Positions 8,701 to 64,000 of a stretch of DNA of 64,000 nt are shown here, in pieces; position 1 is the first letter of the stretch, and each line of letters opens with the position of its first letter. The stretch is from Macrostomum lignano (Eukaryota): assembly GCA_002269645.1 (NCBI GenBank), contig NIVC01001407.1, forward strand, positions 231,109-295,108. Direction: 5' to 3'. Under the pieces are notes generated by a model, which was given only the letters and a program-made list of their open reading frames with translations, was not told where the DNA came from and made no database searches. The translations under genes and the position numbers were made by a program.

Positions 8701-11603
8701 TAAATCAATGCGTAAAGGTTGACGTTTATATCGCATAGGCATAGGCATAGCTAAAGTTACTTCAGCATGGGTAACTAAATGAGAATTGTATCGATTCATT
8801 TTTCTTTGATGCATTTTAGTATCAGGAAAGGACAGACAGAAAGTACCGACAGTTGTATAAAATCCAATTTGACTGTTTCCTAAAATGTAAAAAATGTTTC
8901 GCAAAGGACTTTTTAGTGCATTATGAGATCCCATACTAAAATTATCTGATAATGGTCCCCTTTGAAGGTCACTCGCGTCGCAATGTACAGTTTACTTCGT
9001 GTCACGCGCTTTAAGCGTGATATAATAAAAAGAGAGAGGGAGATACGGAAAGGCTATTTTTAGATTCGGGTGCAAGACATTAATGTACACTGCTGAGTGT
9101 ACATATAAATGGGGGAGGGGGTAAATCTGGGCGAGAAGACGCTTCTTGTTTACCCCCGTAGTTCACTGACTTTTTTCAGTTTGAGGGAAGGAAAAGATGG
9201 TGTGTTTTCAGAACCAGTTCTAACCGGCCTTTAAACTGGATCAGAAGCTCTCCAGTTTACTCAGGCCACACTGACGAGTGACGTGACGTATGATTTAAAA
9301 AACAATTTCTAGCATCTGCACGTTATGAAATCTTTTGAAATCTTGGGAGCCATCTTTAATATTCAGTTTTACACCTGGGTGACGGGTGTACAGTATACAC
9401 TCAGCAACATGTTAAAGTTTCCACCCTGAAGCCAGTGAAAAATGAATGAATTAATGAATTAAATCTTAATGTTATCATTGACAATACACTAATATCAGGT
9501 TATTTTTCGTCATATCAGCTTGATTGCGAAATCAGCCCATACGAGCCCGCGGACGCGTGGAGTGTGAATTGCGTCACTTGGGGCTGAGAATCTCAGATCT
9601 GAGGAAAGTTGACCAATGACCACTGGTTTTGGAGTGGAAACTTTAACATGTTGCTGAGTGAGTGTACATGTAATTTGCTGACCGCAAAGATCATGCAATA
9701 TAATTTACATAAAAGGTAATGTAACGTGTGGATCAACTCGGTCTCCTACAGTAAAATTCCAAATGTCATTGATTTGCTCCACAGTTAAATAAAAATAAAA
9801 AAATCTAACAATAACTAACAAATCTAACAAGACGTCAATTCAAAAAGTTTGAGGCTTTTAATTTGGCTTCCTTTAGGGTATTACTATAACTACGAGTATA
9901 TTATCTTGCCCATCGCCCATTAAATCTATACTCAGCATTCAGCAACAGTCAAAAGTTCCACCCTCCGAGCGAGATGAAAATTTTCTCACTGTTTGCGACA
10001 ACTTTGCACTCACAATTCAACCCTTCGGTTACGTAAATAAGCCGCCGGCACGCCGCGAGGAAGGGAGAGTTGATTGAATCAATAATAAACCTCATTCGCA
10101 CAAAATCATAACAGTTTTTTTTGCAATCTTCAGTTAGAATCGCGATGCTTAATAACGCGTGTGGGATCCCCCGCACGCAGAAGTGCGGCGACTCTGGGTT
10201 GCATTCCCAGGAAAAGGAGGGGCCGCAGAAAGTCCTGGGGAAGCTGCCGCCAAGCGTTTTCAAAGGCATGACGCAGCTCCGCAACATTCTGTTGTGGTGA
10301 ATTTTCTTTTCGATCGCAGAATTTTAGGAAATCTCAGACATGCTCGATGGGATTCATGTCTGAGGATCGGGAAGGCCGGCGCAGAGTGTGCAGCTGTAGC
10401 TGTTCTTTCAGTTGACTAACGGCATCGGCATCGGCAGACCCAAACCATCCCCAGCCCCAGGTGGCAAAGGCAATAATTAAGCTTTGCACGTGCGAAGTAA
10501 GTTGCGTCACTAGCAATAGTGAAAAAAATTCATCTCGCTTGGAGGGTGGAACTTGTGACTGTTGCTGAGTATAGCAAAGACAGGTTAAGCAATGTCATTG
10601 CATGGTAACTCAACTTCTTCAAAACTTCATCTGCTTTGTTGATCAAGATGCCACAGTGGCGTAGCCAGGGGAGGGCAGGGGGCCGCAATCGCCTGAGGGG
10701 GGTGGGGTTGGGCGCGGCGGGTACCAAAAACCATGAGGCAATTGAGTGCCTGCGGCGCTAAAATGAGTGCCTGCGGCGCCAAAATGAGTGCCTGCTGCGC
10801 CAGAAGTGGCAATGGCATAAGGCATGGCCAGCCAGGCCAACCTGCCCCCCCCCCCAATTGAAATTCCTGGCTACGCCACTGAGATGCCAAACATCCCCCT
10901 ACTAATGAAAGAAAGATCCTGGCTACCCCTGGTGCTATGCGTCACGACTATGAAGGTCTGAGTAACTTATGAGGGTCTATATAGCTATTATTTGGTATCC
11001 ATGTACATGTACAGAGTACATGTACCCATAGCACACTTACACCTAAACACTTGCTAATGCAAGAACGCTACAGACGTTTTTAAGTGTTACGTACGTACCA
11101 TGCAGAATGTTAAAAATACACTTTGCTTAATCCTATTTTTAGATCCGTCGGGCGAGCACTTTCTCGGACTGGATGCACTTGCCGAGATGACGTCTAGACG
11201 CGAATACCAGCTGTGGGTGGTTCTGGAAGACTGGGAGGGTTTAGTCAAGCATGTCAACTACGATCGCTTCTTTGTTTTTGGCAAACAGTACAACTACAAG
11301 CTTATCGTGGACCGTTTCCATGGCGACGCAAGCGTCGGCGACTCGCTAGGCAGCCACTCGAACGCGTCGTTCAGCACCTTCGACTCGGACAATGATCTTG
11401 TTGATACTAAATTTGGCGGCAACTGCGCTAAACGCTTTCGCGGCGGTTTCTGGTACTTCTCGTGCTATCGAGCGAATCCCACTGGTCAATACTATCAGGG
11501 CGGAGCAATACCCAACAAGAAGTGCGATGGTATCGTCTGGAAGACTTGGAAAGGACCGCATTATTCGCTTAAGTCAATTGAAATGAAGATTAAACCGTTA
11601 TAA
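2734..11603 (+). CDS. Secreted coiled-coil + fibrinogen-related-domain (FReD) protein, about 963 aa; exons 2734-4951, 5413-5625, 11143-11603
   Basis: Signal-peptide-like start (MDSQKFVVGLLCCILIQCAKLSSC). GT-AG junctions with matching phase 1 (ATT G|gtacgt..cacag|AC TGT; GGT G|gtaagc..tttag|AT CCG) give 2892 nt in frame. FReD motifs: DCSDIY, VRCDM, GWTYILSRRDG, FFRNWTEYRSGFG, EHFLGL, FSTFDSDND, NCA..GGFWYFSC, GIVWKTWKG..YSLK..EMKIKP. Additional in-frame introns within exon 1 cannot be excluded. Confidence 0.85.
5738..6710. repeat. 17-bp minisatellite (GACAGCTACAGAGGGGC)n in FReD gene intron 2
   Basis: Direct tandem repeat visible in the sequence. Confidence 0.95.
7163..7857. repeat. 20-bp minisatellite (GTGTCCACCGAGAGACAGGG)n in FReD gene intron 2
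   Basis: Near-perfect period-20 tandem array that degenerates at its 3' end. Confidence 0.95.
8440..8540. repeat. (GGTA)n-type microsatellite
   Basis: Run of AGGT/GGTA units. Confidence 0.9.
9396..9667. repeat. Inverted-repeat-bounded segment, possible MITE
   Basis: TACACTCAGCAACATGTTAAAGTTTCCAC (~9396) is mirrored by GTGGAAACTTTAACATGTTGCTGAGTGAGTGTA (~9636-9667). TSD not firmly identified. Confidence 0.45.
10155..10400 (-). pseudogene. Tc1-like transposase C-terminal relic
   Basis: Minus strand reads RPSRSSDMNPIEHV*DFLK...NVAELRHAFENAWRQLPQDFLR...RVAALLRA. This matches the Tc1 WPxxSPDLNPIEHxW motif and C-terminus, with the conserved W changed to TGA. Confidence 0.8.
10654..10881. mobile_element. 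hAT-family MITE (228 bp)
   Basis: TIRs CAGTGGCGTAGCCAGG / CCTGGCTACGCCACTG with a perfect 8-bp TSD AGATGCCA (10646-10653 and 10882-10889). An 8-bp TSD is characteristic of hAT elements. Confidence 0.9.
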
Positions 11604-53756: not shown

Positions 53757-54919
53757 TAGTATATGGAATTCGACGCTTTTCATTTTCCTACTCGATCTTC
53801 AATGAAAAGCCGAATAGAGCTCTATGTAAATGGATTGGTGGACTCTGCCGCGGGGAAAGCAGCATAAGTTCCTGGGAAGCCCAAAACTGATTCTCTAAAA
53901 AGTAGTAAAAAACTTCTCTAGTGTACATTAGCCATAGTTAATTGAGAATTGGGTGAACCTGGCTTCCGATCTCCACAATATTTAAACTTTGTTGGCAGTG
54001 GGAATATATAGGCCTATGTTCATGAGTTCCTCCGCACTTTTGTACGAGTCTCGCAAATTGGACTGAATTTGTTGTGAAAGTGAGCTTGCAAAGAGCCGTT
54101 TATTGCCTTGTTATTGTTTTTCTTGATACTGCTGATTTGGCCGCGGGGAAGTGGGGTGCAGGTCTGGGGTGGAGGTCTTTAGAACTATCTGATGCACGCG
54201 ACGGGGGGAATGTTATCAGTTTTATTATTATTATCGTTCAATAACGGTAAGAAAATAATTAGTCATACACATATGTAACGTGTAAACATATCTGTATGTG
54301 TACATATAGGCGATATTGCCTGGTGATTTGGATATATTTAGTATATAGGAATTCGACGCTTTTCATTTTCCTACTCGATCTTCAATGAAAAGCCGAATAG
54401 AGCTCTATGTAAATGGATTGGTGGACTCTGCCGCGGGGAAAGCAGCATAAGTTCCTGGGAAGCCCAAAACTGATTCTCTAAAAAGTAGTAAAAAACTTCT
54501 CTAGTGTACATTAGCCATAGTTAATTGAGAATTGGGTGAACCTGGCTTCCGATCTCCACAATATTTAAACTTTGTTGGCAGTGGGAATATATAGGCCTAT
54601 GTTCATGAGTTCCTCCGCACTTTTGTACGAGTCTCGCAAATTGGACTGAATTTGTTGTGAAAGTGAGCTTGCAAAGAGCCGTTTATTGCCTTGTTATTGT
54701 TTTTCTTGATACTGCTGATTTGGCCGCGGGGAAGTGGGGTGCAGGTCTGGGGTGGAGGTCTTTAGAACTATCTGATGCACGCGACGGGGGGAATGTTATC
54801 AGTTTTATTATTATTATCGTTCAATAACGGTAAGAAAATAATTAGTCATACACATATGTAACGTGTAAACATATCTGTATGTGTACATATAGGCGATATT
54901 GCCTGGTGATTTGGATATA
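53757..54919. repeat. 583-bp near-perfect tandem duplication
   Basis: AATTCGACGCTTTTC at 53767 and 54350. Both copies end GCCTGGTGATTTGGATATA (54336, 54919). Confidence 0.95.
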
Positions 54920-55061
54920 AGGACTGAAAAATTCTACTGAGCCATTAAAAATAGATTTTGTTGATATTTAAACGGACTTCGAAATTTCAAATTTTCACAA
55001 AAAACCCTTGATTAAATTTTAAACCATAAGCCATTCTCGGTGCCCATCCTACGTTCATGAG

Positions 55062-55938
55062 GTGTGTGTCACCTGCAATATTAGTATGCTCGGTGGACTA
55101 AAGCACCATGTAGCGAATGAAGGCTGCAGTGTCACCCGATGGCTACTATGCCATGAATGCCAGTCCGTTGAACTCTTCACTGTTAGAGGCCAAATCAAAA
55201 GGCATAAAAATCATTCGACTGTTAACTGGAGCTCTGCTGAGGACCGCGAGCAGGCACGCATTACTGCTCTGGAAGTTGCACGTCAAGAGGAACGCAACAG
55301 GGCGGCAGAACACATTCGAGAGCCGGTGAGCACTTTGAGTCAAGTTATCACGAGCTTATGCGGCCGATCAACGAACACTGGTGACCAGCCCAACGCCCAG
55401 CCTGCTGCTGCTTCTGCTGCTCTACTCGACGGTGATGTCGGAGCTCCCCTGCTTGATGCTGCTGATGGAGGTGGCACCCCTGACTTCGAGCTGAATGAGC
55501 TGGACACCGCTTTCTTCGAGAACCTCGATGGTGAGCCTGAAGCACAGGAGCAGCAAGAAATGCAACAGCAGCAGCAGCGGCGTGCAATCCCTGTTCCCGG
55601 AAAAAAATATGGAGCGTGCCAGGATGCTGGCAGAAGTCAGCCTGTCCGACGTGATTCGCGATATGGACTCAGGCCCTGCGCCTCCACCACCGCCGCCACC
55701 GACTGAGGTTCAGCCTGCGGTCGAAGTCAGCCTGTCCGACCTGATTCGCGATATGGACTCAGGCCCTGCGCCTCCACCACCGCCGCCACCGACTGAGGTT
55801 CAGCCTGCGGCCGCTAATGAAGTGCAGCAGCCAGCACCTCTCTGCATCCAGCTGGTTCTGCCCAACAGTGTTACGGGTGAATATTGGATTGACTTGGGAG
55901 GGGCTTTCCGTATTCGCCTGAGCAATTCTCAATTCTAA
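55062..55938 (+). CDS. Polinton-borne hypothetical ORF(s): Cys/His-rich N-terminal part plus an overlapping Pro-rich ORF with a 30-aa duplication
   Basis: ORFs 55062-55706 (CVTC..HH, CHEC..H; no ATG) and 55495/55609-55938 (EVSLSDxIRDMDSGPAPPPPPPPTEVQPA x2). They may be one frameshifted gene. Confidence 0.4.
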
Positions 55939-57231: not shown

Positions 57232-60200
57232 ATGCTAATTCATGCAGGCATTCAATTCAGCTCGGCTATTCACGCTAGTGCGCATGATGACACGCTGCAG
57301 GTCAGACGCTTCACTCCAGCATCAAGAGGTCTCGAGCCATTTCATTTTTTATCATCAACGAAGTTTGCAGTGCTACAGGCTGTTGAGATGAGATTCGATT
57401 CATCCGAGAATAAATCTATTCGAGCGCAGCTTAAGTTCAACATTAGAATGGTGAGAATCAAGGAAGCTGCGGTAATCAATGCAGAAGATAAGTGGATCGC
57501 ATGCGGTCTTGAGCTTCTCTCTGATCTAAGAGATTTTGAATTGTGGTGGTTGCAGCAGTTTTCTGAGCTGGAACGCAAGATTGATGCCTACAATTCAAAT
57601 GGGAGCGGTTGGATAGTTGAGCAAATCAACTATTTTGATCTGTGCTCTGCCCTCACTGATCGCATTCGCTACTATCGTGGACGATGCGCGAATTTTTCTT
57701 TGCCCAATCAGCTGGCCGTTAAGAAGGCCATAATCAACCCACCGAGCGATGGAAACAATTGCTTTCTGTTTGCCTGTCTCGCTTACCTGCACAACAGAGA
57801 TCCAGGTGTGATGAAGTCTTGCCATCGACTAACAACTTACAGCAGATGGTTGGATGAAATCGATCTGAGCGGCATCGCACTACCAGTCGCAATTTCCGAT
57901 TTAGACGTTATAGAGGAAAAGAATTCCGAAATCTGTTTCACAGTTTTTAGCTGGGAAGATGATGAGGCCTATGTCATTCGCCAGCCTCTTCCTGGGATTT
58001 GTGCCTCTCGCAAGGTTATTCCTCTACTCTTGCTTCGCAACTCCAGCTCCGATGATGCTGATGATGATGATGGTGGTGATGAGAATTGTGGGACTGGACA
58101 CTGGTGTGCAGTTTCGAACCTGGACCGGCTCCTGAACAGCAAAAAAGGTCTGAGGAATCGCAAATGGTGTGAGAAGTGCATTTCTCCGTTTCGATTCCAG
58201 GAAGAGTTGGAGCAGCATCGAGACAGCTGCAATCCTCAACTGAAACCAGCCATCATGGAGCGCATGCCTGATGCAAGTAGCAACACAATGCAGTTCATGG
58301 CTTGGGAAAAGACAATCAGTCCCCCATTTGTTGTCTACGCAGATTTTGAAGCTCTGAACACCCCACGTGAACCAGTGAAGCCTGAAAGAGAAGTTACTGT
58401 CACCAAGTTAACTGAGCATGTACCTGTAGCTGCTGGCTACATTGTTATTCCAAGAGAGGGTATGAGCAGCAAAATTCTGAGGCCGAGTGAGGATGTTTTC
58501 CTCTGCAGCGGACCCAATCCGAATTCTGTCGTGAAACAGTTTTTGGCCTCACTCGAACGTCTTGCTCGTGAAGTTTATGGTAGGAATACCGAGTTTAGTC
58601 ATCAGATTGCTGACAGAAACAGTGATGACAACAGGCGCAGCTTTCAAGATTCCACACAGTGCTATTTATGCAATGCAGTGTTCATTTCATCTTCTGACAA
58701 GCACTGGGATCACGACCACCTCAGCGGTGAATACAAGGGTGCTGCCTGCGCTTCGTGTAACAAGCTTGCTCGGCTAAAACGGCGATTTTTGCCAATAGTT
58801 TTCCACAATCTTCGCGGATATGACCTGCATTTGATTTTCTCAACTGCGCTGGGTGACATGACTGGTTGGAGGGTGAGCGTCATCCCCCAAACTGCTGAGT
58901 CGTACCTCTCCATGAGGGTCGAGTTCCAGATTGATGAGTATGAGAAAGATGGCGTAAAAAAGCCCCTGTTTTTCACGCTACAATTCATCGACTCACTGCA
59001 ATTCCTACACAGCAGTCTCTCTCAACTTATTAAGAACTTGCCGGAGGACAACTGTCCCATCACTAATGCGATGCAATCAAAGTATCCAAATCTCTCAAGC
59101 GATGTACTGTTTAGTAAGGGAGTTTTCCCGTATGATTATCTCTCGAATTTGAATGCGCTTGATGATCGCCAACTACCAAAAGTAGAAAGCTTTTTTAACC
59201 GACTCACCAACAGCCACTGTACCGAGGCGGAGTATCGGCATGCGCAGAAGGCCTGGACTGAATTCGAATCTACAACATTGCGCGATTACATGCTCTGCTA
59301 CTTGGAGCTGGACATCAGGCAACTAGCAGATATCTTTGAAGGGTTTCGAAGGCTGAGTTTGCAGGAAGACAAGCTAGATCCGGTGTATTTTGTGTCAACT
59401 CCAGGCTTATCATTCGCTTCTGCACTAAAGTCTTCTCAAGTCAAGATCGAACTGCTAACTGACCTCGAGATGTATAAAATGTTTGAGAAAGGAATTCGGG
59501 GTGGAATGTCTTTTGTCAATGTACATCATGTCCAGAGCGAAAGTAGTGATGATGATAATGAACCAGCAGGTAGGAGTTTACTGGCTGTTGATGCTAATAA
59601 CCTTTATGGTCATGCGCTCACAATGCCCCTACCTGTTGGCGGCTTTCGCTGGCTCAGTCAAGAGGAGCTGTGCTCCTGGTCCGAGTGCCGCTTTCTTTCC
59701 CTGGATGATGACGCTCCAATCGGCTACCTTGTCGAAGCGGATTTGCTCTACCCAGCCGAAATCCACACGGCAACGGAGGATCTTCCATTCGCCCCAGAGA
59801 AAAGGTGTGAATTTCGAAGAATTTCCGCAGTACATGCGAGAATTATGGGTACTGCTTCAACATGACAATGATCATTCTCATCATCATCAGCAGCAGCAGC
59901 CCGACGCGAACACGACTGAGAATCCTACCGTTGCGCGCTACCGTGGAGTACAAAAATTAATGCTCACATGCCACAACAAGTTTTCCTATGTACTGCACTC
60001 GTCTGCTCTCCGATTCTATCTATCGCACGGAATGAAGTTGCATGGGCTCCACAGGATGATCGAATTCAGGCAAGAACCTGTCTTCGCGGACTACATTAAG
60101 ATGAATAGCGAGAAGCGCTCTATGGCGAAAAATGATTTCGAGAAGGATTTCTATAAACTGAAAAATAACTCCCTGTTTGGCAAAACAATGGAGAACGTGC

Positions 60201-60982
60201 GCAAGCGGCGGGACATCAGAGTGTGCAGTGACAAGAAAAAAGCCAAGACTGTTTCTTCTCAACCAAATGTCGCATCATTCACAATCATTACGCCGTCACT
60301 CAGCATCTTTGAGCTTCAAAAGCACGAAGTAACTCTTGATCGCCCAATCTTCATGGGGCAGTGTGTTCTAGATCGCTCCAAGATCATCATGTATCGACTT
60401 TACTATGACAAAATAAAACCCATGCTAGAATTCCGTGATGGAGCAAGAGTTCGAGTTTGCGGTGGCGATACAGACTCGTTGTTTTTGAGCTTAGAGAACC
60501 TTAGTTTGCAGAGAGAAGTGCTGCCAATCCTGCATGCCGAAGGCCTCTTGGACACCTCCAATTTTTTCACTAATCATCCTCTCTTCTCGAATCGGCTAAA
60601 GGCCAAGCTAGGCTGCATTAAAGATGAAGCTGGTGGACTGCAACAGATTGAGTGGGTGCTGCTAAGGCCCAAGCTCTATTCTTTCCTCGCTGAAAGCTCG
60701 GCGGCATGCAAAGCTAAAGGCATCCAACGAAGCGTGCTGAAGAATGAAGTCTCCCACGACGACTATGTCAAGATTTTCAAGGGGGCTTCAAAGCTGTCGC
60801 TCACTGTTCGTCGAATTGGAAGTGAGAAACATCGCGTTTTCACCATTGAGCAACGTAAGCTCGCTCTCAGTATCTGGGAGGACAAGCGAGCGTGGACTGG
60901 CTCGAACTCAAGTCTTCCGTTCGGCCACTTTCAGCTGTTAATCAGGGGTAGTCCGAAAAGGACAGCGGACTGCTTAGAGTGA
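57232..60982 (+). CDS. Protein-primed family B DNA polymerase (pPolB), about 1250 aa, with one +1 frameshift at the A4 run 59800-59803
   Basis: Exonuclease motifs VVYADFEAL, FHNLRGYDLH, FIDSLQFL, KGVFPYDY. Polymerase motifs KGIRGGMS, AVDANNLYG, KLKNNSLFGKT, GGDTDSLF, KAKGI. An EndoVII-like insert reads CYLC..HWDHDHLSGEYKGAACASCN. Removing one A joins PFAPEK to GVNFEEFPQY. Confidence 0.93.
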
Positions 60983-61105: not shown

Positions 61106-61700
61106 TGATGATGATAATGACAATGCTGGAACGAATAGAGCCAATTCAGTTAGTTACATATTTGTAGTCTCTAAGCAACTAACTGAGCGTAACATTTTCG
61201 AGTTGAGTTGTTCCAGATTTATTTCAATACGAACTTGTGAAAGCCATGTTGGAATAATTTGCGGCATATTGGTCTGGCTTTCCCCTTTTTTATTATCCTT
61301 GAATTTTTGCACAATTGAATGAACTGAGTTACTGTCCTTTTTTATCTTTGCTAGCTTTGCTACTCATATTTTTTGTAACCATTATCCAATGATTATCTGA
61401 AAAATATTTGCTTCCTTTTTCATTTCTGCTAGTTCTTGTTCGTTTTTGTCTTAGCAGTGCATAATCTGAGTGATGGGTGTGCTTTTTTTCTTGAGTTGGT
61501 GGTGGTCTGATTAAATTTTCTATACTCAAACTAATATTGCGATTTCAGTTTTGAAAATAAAGAAAAAGTCGATCGAAGTCTGATTTTCAGGTATATTGAT
61601 TAAAATGCACGCATCTTAATACGTGGTATATGCATGCAAATTATTATATTTTTGTTCAGCTGTCGTCTTTTTATTTAATTGTTGAAACATATGGTTATTA

Positions 61701-62264
61701 TTAGCACAGAAAACGGACAAGCAAGGAAAAGTCGGAAATTAGCATGCTCATTGTTTTTGCACCACTGAGAACAAATGAGCCATTGTGAAAAAGCAGGCAT
61801 TTGCAGAAGCTTAGTTTGCAGATCAAAGCAGAAAATGATTCTGGCTCATATTGAGCACTTGGTAAAGTGTTTACAAGATTAGCGAGGGGAAGTGCTCTGC
61901 ACAAGTCAATCTTCCCATGAGCAGTAATAGTTTTAATCCGCACATGCACAGCTTGATGAGGCAGCAGTTGAGCAGGCACTCTGCGATGCAGCATAGCCAC
62001 GAAGCGACGAGCGGCCCTGACTGAGGCCGAGTAGCTCCGGGCGCCACAGATACTCAGTTGTCCAGTCGGATAGAGCAACAGAGTCACTCTGGGATTCCGC
62101 ATCCTCTTGATAAGCACTCGGGGCCAGACGGGACGATAGATGACATGAGCCATGCTGAGAGCCAGTTCCCGCAGAGGCAATTGGGCACCCCTGCCTCCAG
62201 CAAGTCTCAGATCCACGCCGCCGACCAGATTGGTCACTCGCAGGGCTGTCGCAGGTGTACTCAT
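61701..62264 (-). CDS. Divergent TATA-binding-protein (TBP)-like protein, 187 aa, inside the Polinton
   Basis: Two TBP half-repeats: VTNLVGGVDL..IYRP..RMRNPRVTLLLYPTGQLSICGARS..AARRF, and YEPESFSALI..LLFHNGSFVLSGAKT. These align by eye with canonical [38 protein letters not shown] and YEPELFPGLI..LLIFVSGKIVLTGAK. The ORF is intact and intronless, with AATAAA about 25 nt after the stop. Confidence 0.88.
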   Translation of the reverse strand: MSTPATALRVTNLVGGVDLRLAGGRGAQLPLRELALSMAHVIYRPVWPRVLIKRMRNPRVTLLLYPTGQLSICGARSYSASVRAARRFVAMLHRRVPAQLLPHQAVHVRIKTITAHGKIDLCRALPLANLVNTLPSAQYEPESFSALICKLSFCKCLLFHNGSFVLSGAKTMSMLISDFSLLVRFLC

Positions 62265-62334
62265 TTAGAGAGTCCTTTCTGCCTGTGGTACTGTCTTTGC
62301 GAGCTTTTGAGTGGTACGGGCACACCTCGCTTCT

Positions 62335-62778
62335 TAAGTTGATACAGAACTTCGGTTTCAGCCAGTTGTAGTACAGTAATACATTTTTCACTGCGCAACC
62401 AGTATCAGATGCTTGAATCAAAGGTGGTCCCAGATCCTCTAGGTTGTACACCTGTCTGCCAAGCAGCTCAGTCAGAAAGATGGACTTCTTCACCCCGCTT
62501 GTCCAGGTGGGACCGTAAGCAATGTTTAGAATGTCATTTGCCAAATGCATGTACGGTCGAGATCCATCTGTTCACTTGAAATGATGCAAATTCTTTGAGA
62601 GCTTTCTGTAATGCACTTGCATCTCAGGTGAGATTCTCTCCCATGAGAACGGAGAGGCGTACACGTGATGAGTGATATGGTAACTGCCAGCCCGGACTTG
62701 GGCAATGCCCAGCTCCTTCACAACGAAATCTCTGCTCGATCTCTCGCGTGGGAAGCCTTGGAAGTCAATATAGTTCAT
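62335..62778 (-). pseudogene. DEDD-like 3'-5' exonuclease/RNase-H-fold ORF of a type seen in Polintons, with an in-frame TGA at 62572
   Basis: Reads MNYIDFQGF..FVVKELG..HHVYASPFSW..NLHHFK*TDGSRPY..SGVKKSIFL..VYNLEDLG..CAVKNV..NWL in one frame. The stop falls where a Trp is expected (HxxxWxDG). The 3' end is uncertain. Confidence 0.6.
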
Positions 62779-62851
62779 GATCGGATGGTTTCAAGACGCA
62801 AGATGTCGGAAGCCGACTCAGTTCCCCTTCTTAAATAGTTTTTTTTCCTGC

Positions 62852-63529
62852 TCAGGTGTAGCCAGGCTCTCCCACTCCCGAATCCCTTAACTGTATGATG
62901 TGCAGGGGTGGCCTCTGGAGAAACAGCAGCGGTTTAGAAATTAGCTGCCTTACTGACTTTCCTATAGCCGAAGCTGGGATGTTAAGCTTTTTGTCTTGAA
63001 GCAATGAGACAAACTCACTCCAGCCTACCGGCTCGTGGCACATTTCGAATCCCTCACCGCACTGTGAAACAAATCCAGGATGTTTGAGGAGGGTATTGTC
63101 TTCCCAGAAATTTGCGCCTCGCCATTTTCGGACACCCGATGATCAGAGAGGGATTGCCAGATAGGATGGCCCATAGACTGCGGGCTCTCGCTTTAAACTT
63201 CTGCGGCACGGATTGGGTGATCTTTCCCCCCAGCTGCTGGGTGCAATATCTGTTTTCAGCATCTTTGCATCACTCGCAGGTACCGCACCATCCTTTCCAG
63301 TCCGCTTGCGCTTGGCCAGCAAACTCTTCATCGCATCATGGTACATGGCAGCTTTCACATCGTCTGGGCAATCCTCGGCAAGCAAAATATCATTGCATTT
63401 CCTCTGCGCATATCTCACAGCAGTGTCCATTCAGACTCGACTGGCTTCAGACTCGACTGGCTTCAAATTCTGTGTGAGCATGTCGTACTCTGACTTGGGG
63501 ATCAGAACCATTTCTGAGAACTTATTCAT
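62852..63529 (-). pseudogene. Conserved Polinton-type hypothetical protein, disrupted
   Basis: Fragments in different frames: MVLIPKSEY, NDILL..DDVKAAMY, ENGEAQISGKTIPSSNILDLF, EPVGWSEFVSLL..NIPASAIG. This motif order is one I recall from Polinton ORFs adjacent to PW. Confidence 0.55.
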
Positions 63530-63559
63530 TTTGTTTCTTTTGCTTCACTAGCTTTATTA

Positions 63560-63843
63560 GAATGTAGAGAATTTTAATAAAACCCCGTATTTAGCAGATC
63601 CGCAGTTCTTCTATGTGTTAGAAATTTTGCGGATTATTTGCTTTTGCTTCACCAGCGCTGCCTTCTTTGAGTGAGTGAGAACGACAGAGTGTTTTGCAAT
63701 AGGTTGTAGCAGGCCTCAATGAGAAATTCACGTACGGCTTCTGGACCCGCTCTGATCAACAGACGTTTAAAGCTGATGGAATATTTCGGTGACGCGAGAA
63801 CATTAAACAAACTTTCATGTGAGTCAAAGGTTTCCATTATCAT
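63560..63843 (-). pseudogene. Polinton PW-like small protein, frameshifted
   Basis: Reads LFNVLASPK..KRLLIRAGPEAVREFLIEACYNLLQNTLSFSLTQR, then after a shift KAALVKQKQIIRKIS. This resembles the PW pattern (I..LCE..LN.L.....L...Q...L...K..IR.L). Confidence 0.55.
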
Positions 63844-64000
63844 TTGTGTTGCAGAATATAGAGCAAATGGCAAAATCTCGGCTGTTATTTCTTAAGTGTA
63901 AACAAGGTAGGTGGTCGCTGATTGGGCAGGATTCGAGCCCGGACCCGCAGCTCATCAGGGGTGGAAGGGTGAAAATCCAGGAGCAGGTAGGCTCCCCTGC

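Follow-up and report, generated by a model that had tools for sequence, protein, structure and literature searches.

Can a Polinton/Maverick element carry its own TATA-binding protein (TBP), and if so, what would the element use it for? This question is raised by a 187-aa open reading frame (ORF) near the end of a 64,000-nt stretch of Macrostomum lignano DNA (hereafter called the window). We refer to its product, the Polinton-encoded TBP, as vTBP. The relevant features are listed below, with coordinates given for the window.

61701..62264, minus strand: vTBP, 187 aa, two repeats, without an N-terminal extension
61986..62240, minus strand: TBP repeat 1 (residues 9-93), also covered by the nuclease frame (dual coding); moves with the capsid/integrase arm
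61740..61952, minus strand: TBP repeat 2 (about residues 105-175); KTIT, YEPE stirrup, F190, K203, F207; moves with the pPolB arm
61670..61675, minus strand: AATAAA poly(A) signal, read from the sequence, 25 nt past the vTBP stop
57232..60982, plus strand: protein-primed DNA polymerase B (pPolB, PF03175), two overlapping ORFs in this copy (57232-59865 and 59519-60982)
55086..55938, plus strand: one or more Cys-rich ORFs that precede pPolB; adintoviruses have 'Oncoid' genes in this position
61933..62778, minus strand: MAEL/DEDD-like nuclease ORF, broken in this copy; 273-293 aa long where unbroken, in either family
63143..63843, minus strand: ORF230 and ORF105, conserved in the Polintons but broken in this copy; the capsid/integrase arm beyond is known from sister copies alone

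The original prediction described an intact, intronless TBP made of the two-repeat saddle, and this description is confirmed. The ORF begins with ATG and has no internal stop codon. Pfam family TBP (PF00352) has two matches in it (E 1.6e-21; 76 bits, where the cut-off is 22.9), the best-matching PDB sequences belong to TBPs of archaea and eukaryotes (E 1.7e-16 to 3e-9), and the Atlas gives TBP clusters at 0.96. The fold is that of TBP: an AlphaFold2 model built from a 49-row alignment (pLDDT 95.2) forms a ten-strand, four-helix saddle, and Foldseek lists 40 rows at E<1e-9, every one of them a TBP or a TBP complex (TM 0.76-0.83). The proposed poly(A) signal is likewise present. The proposed placement between pPolB and a nuclease ORF holds in part. 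The pPolB gene does lie on one side, convergent on the plus strand, but the nuclease frame is not a separate neighbor, because in the window it stays open over vTBP codons 1-110 and covers all of repeat 1.

The window ends with its contig (position 64000), and therefore the structure of the element was taken from sister copies. The window's own copy has lost one end at the contig end, and its other end is rearranged; at this pPolB-side end (53767-54930) there is a tandem duplication of ~580 nt, and the outer part of the terminal repeat is missing. A search of the same genome gave at least 152 vTBP matches (the best 150 of 234 candidates were scored), and 94 of the best 150 are near full-length and stop-free, with 72-100% identity. 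Matches cannot be equated with loci here, because single-copy genes of the host are present in triplicate in the assembly, and copy counts thus include duplicated or haplotype copies. For example, the host canonical TBP and TRF2-like genes (L096-L101) occur three times each, at loci without element genes. As predicted, the TBP is carried by Polintons. The nuclease is present at 36/36 short vTBP loci, and pPolB lies within 1.5 kb at 34/36. Among 24 long stretches of this family (family A), which were picked for diversity rather than at random, all have the nuclease, vTBP, and Polinton genes, and 21 have pPolB. Polinton genes also accompany vTBP in 10/10 long stretches of a second family (B) described below. 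In 12 of the 34 long stretches, which come from both families, the two AGTAGT ends are present together with a 6-bp target duplication (11 perfect, one 5/6).

The order of genes in family A is PC4-like, integrase, ORF269, ORF138, ORF427 (likely capsid), protease, ATPase, ORF105, ORF230, nuclease, and vTBP, followed by the convergent pPolB and Cys-rich ORF. One sister copy (C130) carries PF03175 pPolB, PF00665 integrase, and a chromodomain. The protease matches PF00770 (E 4e-5, over the cut-off), the packaging ATPase has a Walker A motif with weak Pfam matches, and the Atlas lead for the nuclease ORF is Maelstrom (0.89). ORF427 gave no sequence match in Pfam, PHROG, or PDB. Its structural model is poor (pLDDT 38), and the top Foldseek matches include adintovirus, MELD-virus, and NCLDV capsids; it is a candidate double-jelly-roll major capsid protein. 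A PC4/Sub1-like gene is present in both families (PF02229, E 8e-5, below the cut-off; e.g., L039:3129-3854 in G000:C130). In family A it occupies the left end, and in family B it is reversed and occupies the right end. Given this Pfam match below the cut-off, it would be a second general-transcription-factor-like gene of the same element. The PC4 fold is known both as a coactivator and as a single-stranded DNA binder. No RNA polymerase gene is present among the identified ORFs of the element.

A genome search with canonical TBP returned weak multicopy matches (among the best 150 of 169 candidates) that proved to be family B. Its layout differs from that of family A, with pPolB on the left and the PC4-like gene on the right. 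Nevertheless, a vTBP of 199 aa, 35-37% identical to that of family A, directly follows the same nuclease in 10/10 stretches, and at least 26 long, stop-free rows share 83-100% identity (best 150 of 202 candidates). Identities between the two families are 48-61% for integrase, 38-43% for capsid, and 39-47% for pPolB. The closest named database proteins are from Macrostomum lignano. Proteins with the vTBP signature were found in Logan, ENA, and JGI data, with identities of 71-74% (P0002-4), 51% (P0009), and ~32% (P0019, P0158, P0159, and P0165).

Families A and B and the metagenome proteins form one clade, far from the host TBP, in a FastTree analysis of 163 rows from which fused, partial, and near-duplicate rows were omitted (support 0.975), and the same clade is starred in an IQ-TREE analysis of 45 rows (SH-aLRT 96). 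Grouping of vTBP with the host TBP is rejected (p-AU 0.003), and the two proteins share only 24-28% identity, which rules out a host TBP orthologue or recent copy. The host TRF2-like protein is not joined to vTBP in the free tree, but their forced union is not rejected (p-AU 0.067; the branches are long). Polinton linkage of vTBP is established within the loci of this genome. A metagenome scan gave 13 loci, of which the four examined are archaeal- or protist-type TBP genes and the other nine are weak, and scans of viral contigs with A1, P0165, P0009, ORF427, and P0024 returned nothing. Environmental contigs also encode minimal TBPs of ~170-190 aa with Thr for the second Asn (P0024, P0032, P0083, P0116, P0123, P0132, and P0142; P0122 and P0144). 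These clades adjoin the Polinton clade in the IQ-TREE analysis through an unstarred link, and their TBPs may belong to other mobile elements.

Selection was evaluated by using our own NG86 script on pairs that are not independent. Among natural family-A copies, dN/dS is 0.05-0.27 for repeat 1 (nine copies, 36 pairs) and 0.05-0.29 for repeat 2 (23 pairs with estimable dS). The values are far below 1, not near 1 as in the refuting case of an unlinked retrocopy that the original prediction named. Its other refuting case, no match to the TBP fold, was not borne out either. Of 87 vTBP sources, 79 have an intact ORF, and the distinct coding sequences number 38. The upstream nuclease frame is free of stops until vTBP codon 107-131 in 36 of the 38, and in the other two it stops at codon 90. 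Synonymous shuffling of the overlap predicts 3.7-5.1 stops (P of none 0.001-0.013), and T occupies 0 of 11-16 would-be stop sites, compared to about a third elsewhere (Fisher p 0.003-0.03); in these statistics, copies within a family are not independent of each other, but the two families nearly are. The dN/dS of the nuclease tail in the overlap is 0.95-4.7. Its amino acids are not conserved, and therefore the open frame itself is what is kept.

A break between elements also lies within the vTBP gene. Inter-element identity drops from ~97% to 50-75% at vTBP nt 310-350 (window about 61915-61955) and stays low on through pPolB. Across 16 family-A elements, repeat 1 tracks the capsid arm (two to three types) and repeat 2 tracks pPolB 1:1 (nine types), where types rest on clusters of 97% or more identity only. 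Judged by these clusters, elements exchange arms at the junction between repeats 1 and 2. We infer that the dual-coded block, which is the best-conserved DNA beside the polymerase arm, serves as the crossover site. Taken together, vTBP is a real, old, and selected TBP-like gene of a Polinton lineage.

What the protein could bind is suggested by its two surfaces. Residues are given in yeast numbering via alignment to the host TBP, with the roles generally assigned to them in TBP; those of positions 194, 203, and 205 are taken from PMC1636458. T68/N69, Y116, C124-G125, K158-T159, E186/E188, F190, K203, and F207 are identical in 19/19 aligned clade rows, and position 161 is Thr in 18 and Ser in one. 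The corresponding host residues are Q68, F116, T124, Q158-N159-x-V161, and V203. The earlier residue assignments are correct against this alignment: F190, F207, and Y-E-P-E are retained, F99 is replaced by Pro after a Trp, F116 by Tyr, and N159 by Thr. Thus, the canonical TATA-reading set (N69/N159, F99/F116/F190/F207, and V71/V122/V161/V213) is altered by N159T, F99P/L, F116Y, V122S/T, and V161T, to which V203K is added. Several repeat-2 phosphate contacts are variable or gone (K201 and K211), and these absences together with the loss of F99 could weaken DNA binding. E186 and E188, which in canonical TBP belong to the acidic TFIIB-binding stirrup, are present in all 19 rows, as read from sequence. 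A complex prediction of vTBP with one exon of host TFIIB, run without DNA, gave scores of 0.32, 0.01, and 0.01, which speak neither for nor against contact. vTBP is TBP-like in fold and partner surface yet departs from the canonical TATA-reading residues, and hence it is a TBP-like protein rather than a canonical TBP.

If vTBP reads DNA, its target might be a recurrent word upstream of element genes, (C/T)(A/T)TAAGAA or YWTAAGAA, which lies 35-150 nt ahead of most integrase, capsid, ATPase, and nuclease starts. The following occurrences lie in the window.

62331..62338, minus strand: CTTAAGAA motif within the nuclease ORF, 74 nt upstream of where vTBP starts; candidate TATA variant
62828..62835, minus strand: TTTAAGAA motif, before the nuclease start
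63889..63896, minus strand: CTTAAGAA motif, before ORF105

TAAGAA is the top or joint-top pre-start 6-mer in three family-A elements and is among the top in two of family B. In 13 elements bounded by terminal inverted repeats (TIRs), [ACT]TAAGAA occurs 125 times on the gene strand versus 17 times on the other. By using a window of 25-150 nt before a start, which was set after the motif was seen, we found 7/8 hits in position in C84 (p 5e-5) and 7/7 in C393 (p 7e-6). Five copies in which some starts were missed gave 5/8, 5/8, 5/8, 4/7, and 3/7, and the test is weak in one family-B copy (C738, p 0.07). In C114, the start patterns missed the integrase and ATPase starts, which follow two hits (-6360 and -2263) at 39 and 42 nt. 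TAAGAA is kept at 7/7 sites between arms that are 72-73% identical (6-mer background 0.21-0.22), and because it is kept in different reading frames, it is a DNA-level signal. The motif was not found upstream of the protease and ORF230 starts, and its density is no higher within elements (7.3 per 10 kb) than in their flanks (8.4 per 10 kb).

A TATA box usually sits at -30 and is followed by a short leader, and the typical spacing of 35-80 nt between motif and start fits this geometry. The PC4-like gene and the first gene of the pPolB arm mostly have TATATAAG- or TATAAA-type boxes instead. The family-B vTBP gene has a canonical TATA-type box; upstream of the family-A gene stands the variant word, and vTBP would thereby be self-reinforcing. 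In yeast TBP, V203 and L205 face TATA base pair 2, the changes I194F/V203T/L205V alter specificity there, and the cavities of the wild-type protein accept G at TATA positions 3 and 6 (PMC1636458, in part). Base 2 of YWTAAGAA is T at most family-A sites, and vTBP position 203 is Lys throughout the clade rows. Two registers of the motif appear to fit: one with G at TATA position 6, and another in which TAAG is the 3' half and the 5' half is degenerate. Words considered as probes for vTBP versus host TBP are CTTAAGAA, TATAAGAA, TATAAGCA, and TATAAAAG.

The reading that we favor, with a probability of roughly 0.6, is that vTBP is the late-gene promoter factor of the element. The original prediction offered a promoter-recognition factor or a TBP mimic, and the motif lends sequence support to the first. 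Host TBP would start the replication genes from canonical TATA boxes. vTBP would then bind the YWTAAGAA variant as a predicted core promoter, and once on DNA it would recruit host TFIIB and RNA polymerase II. The virion, packaging, and integration genes (capsid, ATPase, and integrase) would be switched on second, giving a two-step cascade. That the motif is a core promoter, that vTBP rather than host TBP reads it, and that expression proceeds in two steps are all points that we infer from the arrangement of sequences. Because vTBP is present in both families and the motif precedes most capsid, packaging, and integration genes, the elements likely bring their own Pol II promoter switch. More tentatively, the overlapping nuclease frame might keep repeat 1 untranslated off a longer upstream message, such that vTBP would rely on its own promoter. 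A broader proposal, to which we give slightly less than even odds, is that the element runs a virus-like early/late program with an altered-specificity TBP on a private TATA variant, and that the vTBP gene is also the hinge for replication/capsid exchange, each working vTBP being a chimera of two independently inherited repeats.

Other explanations must be weighed against this late-promoter reading. Several of the results above also speak against it: the motif density in flanks, the lack of the motif before the protease and ORF230, the weak positional test in C738, and the loss of F99 and of phosphate contacts. In addition, repeat 2 varies over nine arm types while the motif is unchanged. The protein could be a decoy or repressor whose stirrup soaks up TFIIB or engages NC2, Mot1, or TAF1, damping transcription of the host or of competing elements, with host TBP reading the motif. 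The invariant E186/E188 on a protein whose DNA face is non-canonical and lacks F99 would suit such a role, as would the acceptance of G at position 6 by host TBP (PMC1636458, in part). Since wild-type TBP takes G at positions 3 and 6, host TBP might also read the TATAAGAA-type sites that are common in family B. Furthermore, a related word, of the TATAAGCA type (TAAGC), precedes structural genes in two further Polinton families, C and D (L146 and L147; G000:C1975 and C362), and these families have no TBP in the parts seen, namely 8.4 kb of each partial stretch, with genome TBP searches covering the best 150 of 169-330 candidates. A TAAG word could be a common property of Polintons and have some other reader than vTBP. 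However, the DNA-facing residues of vTBP have not decayed but are fixed to new polar or basic ones across families whose vTBPs share 35% identity, which a pure protein decoy would not obviously need, and an element that relies on host Pol II would presumably harm its own genes by removing TFIIB. We consider the decoy explanation unlikely. Families C and D also carry dUTPase and a PLA2X-like ORF (a label that we take from adintovirus gene names), and further ATPase groups are present at 34-36% identity. One TBP-profile match in control family C (E 0.002) was rejected as an AT-rich, duplicated, non-coding stretch.

An equally improbable alternative is that vTBP binds DNA outside of late activation, either by bending or marking ends or an origin during protein-primed replication or packaging, or by boosting all element promoters without sequence preference. 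Here, the 1:1 co-segregation of repeat 2 with the pPolB arm (nine types, 16 elements) rather than with the motif-carrying arm is suggestive, as is the PC4-like gene with its PF02229 match below the cut-off. Yet co-segregation is what physical linkage beside the crossover point gives, and a TFIIB stirrup would be superfluous for replication. Apart from the AGTAGT ends, no motif-like site was noticed in the terminal repeats. Finally, vTBP could be a passenger, that is, a captured host retrocopy or a frame held open only by the nuclease overlap. Its intronless gene (the host TBP core is also intronless) and the dual coding of repeat 1 might be read in this way. Nevertheless, within the overlap it is the TBP frame that is constrained and not the nuclease tail, and repeat 2 is still under purifying selection beyond it. 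The retrocopy account, named as the competing possibility from the start, fails against the Polinton-linked homologues, the low dN/dS, and the rejected union with host TBP. We therefore regard the passenger explanation as already largely refuted and its probability as very small.

The element resembles Polinton/Maverick elements of the adintovirus type in its AGTAGT-ended TIRs and 6-bp target duplications and in having pPolB, an rve integrase that carries a chromodomain, a C5 protease, a packaging-type ATPase, a candidate double-jelly-roll capsid, and a MAEL-like ORF (PMC8502044, in part); 'MAEL' and 'SSDBP' are labels in the Fig. S2 text of that article (Starrett et al. 2021). It differs from the adintoviruses described in the covered portions of the same article (PMC8502044) in that a full two-repeat TBP is a fixed gene. 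In those portions, TBP is an abbreviation in the Fig. 5 legend only (MELD viruses, section 3.4, non-animal datasets), without a named element or analysis, and 'Oncoid' genes and the mixing of polymerase and capsid modules are described. In the main-text portions covered of Barreat and Katzourakis 2021 (PMC8097293), the words 'TATA' and 'transcription' are absent. In the literature searched, which mostly lay outside subscription journals, we found no work on a Polinton TBP or the YWTAAGAA motif.

Compared to cellular TBP, TRF2/TBPL1, and archaeal TBP, vTBP shares the saddle fold (TM about 0.8), N69, F190, F207, the YEPE stirrup, and GA[KR] motifs, but in addition to the substitutions listed above it has Q158K, and the repeat-2 hairpin of family A is two residues shorter. 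The host has canonical TBP and TRF2-like genes of its own. TBP-fold proteins are also encoded by large DNA viruses, including Nucleocytoviricota in BFVD and mirusviruses, in which TBP is listed as a core gene (PMC10132985, in part). However, such viruses have genomes of hundreds of kb and many have their own RNA polymerase, whereas the element described here is an integrating one of 10-17 kb. vTBP shares 8-14% identity with named BFVD TBP-like matches (20% with one other row) and is no closer to them than to cellular TBP. As in yeast TBPm3, whose changes at 203/205 shift the reading of TATA base pair 2 (PMC1636458, in part), position 203 is changed in vTBP, to an invariant Lys; TBPm3 was engineered with three mutations and its binding was measured, whereas the shift in vTBP would be a prediction from its residues. 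The Polinton word also resembles the late promoter of baculoviruses in having a TAAG core before (late) structural genes. That promoter is (A/G/T)TAAG, and transcription starts inside TAAG by a viral RNA polymerase, an enzyme that was not seen in the Polinton element.

New here are the motif/box split, the invariant non-canonical DNA face with its stirrup, the overlap with the nuclease frame, and the arm swaps at the repeat junction. These features bear on the timing of capsid and integrase expression in Polintons and on whether animal Polintons act as viruses. With a named factor and a named promoter word, the question of timing can be tested by using one protein and short DNA probes. If true, a natural TBP whose TATA preference has changed would be a ready probe of Pol II core-promoter recognition. 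Likewise, a crossover mapped inside the vTBP gene offers a concrete mechanism for the mixing of polymerase and capsid modules in adintoviruses (PMC8502044, in part).

Several minor observations concern the sequence record. At L035:935-10000, contigs from four public studies show single-base length differences from the assembled copy at several sites, so that errors of long-read assembly, and not decay, may account for some of the frame breaks in assembled copies. Contigs over the TBP region come from four runs that were guessed to be RNA; one of these runs covers the whole stretch evenly, as DNA would. Elsewhere in the window, positions 11100-11603 hold a host ORF with a fibrinogen C-terminal domain (PF00147, E 5e-40).
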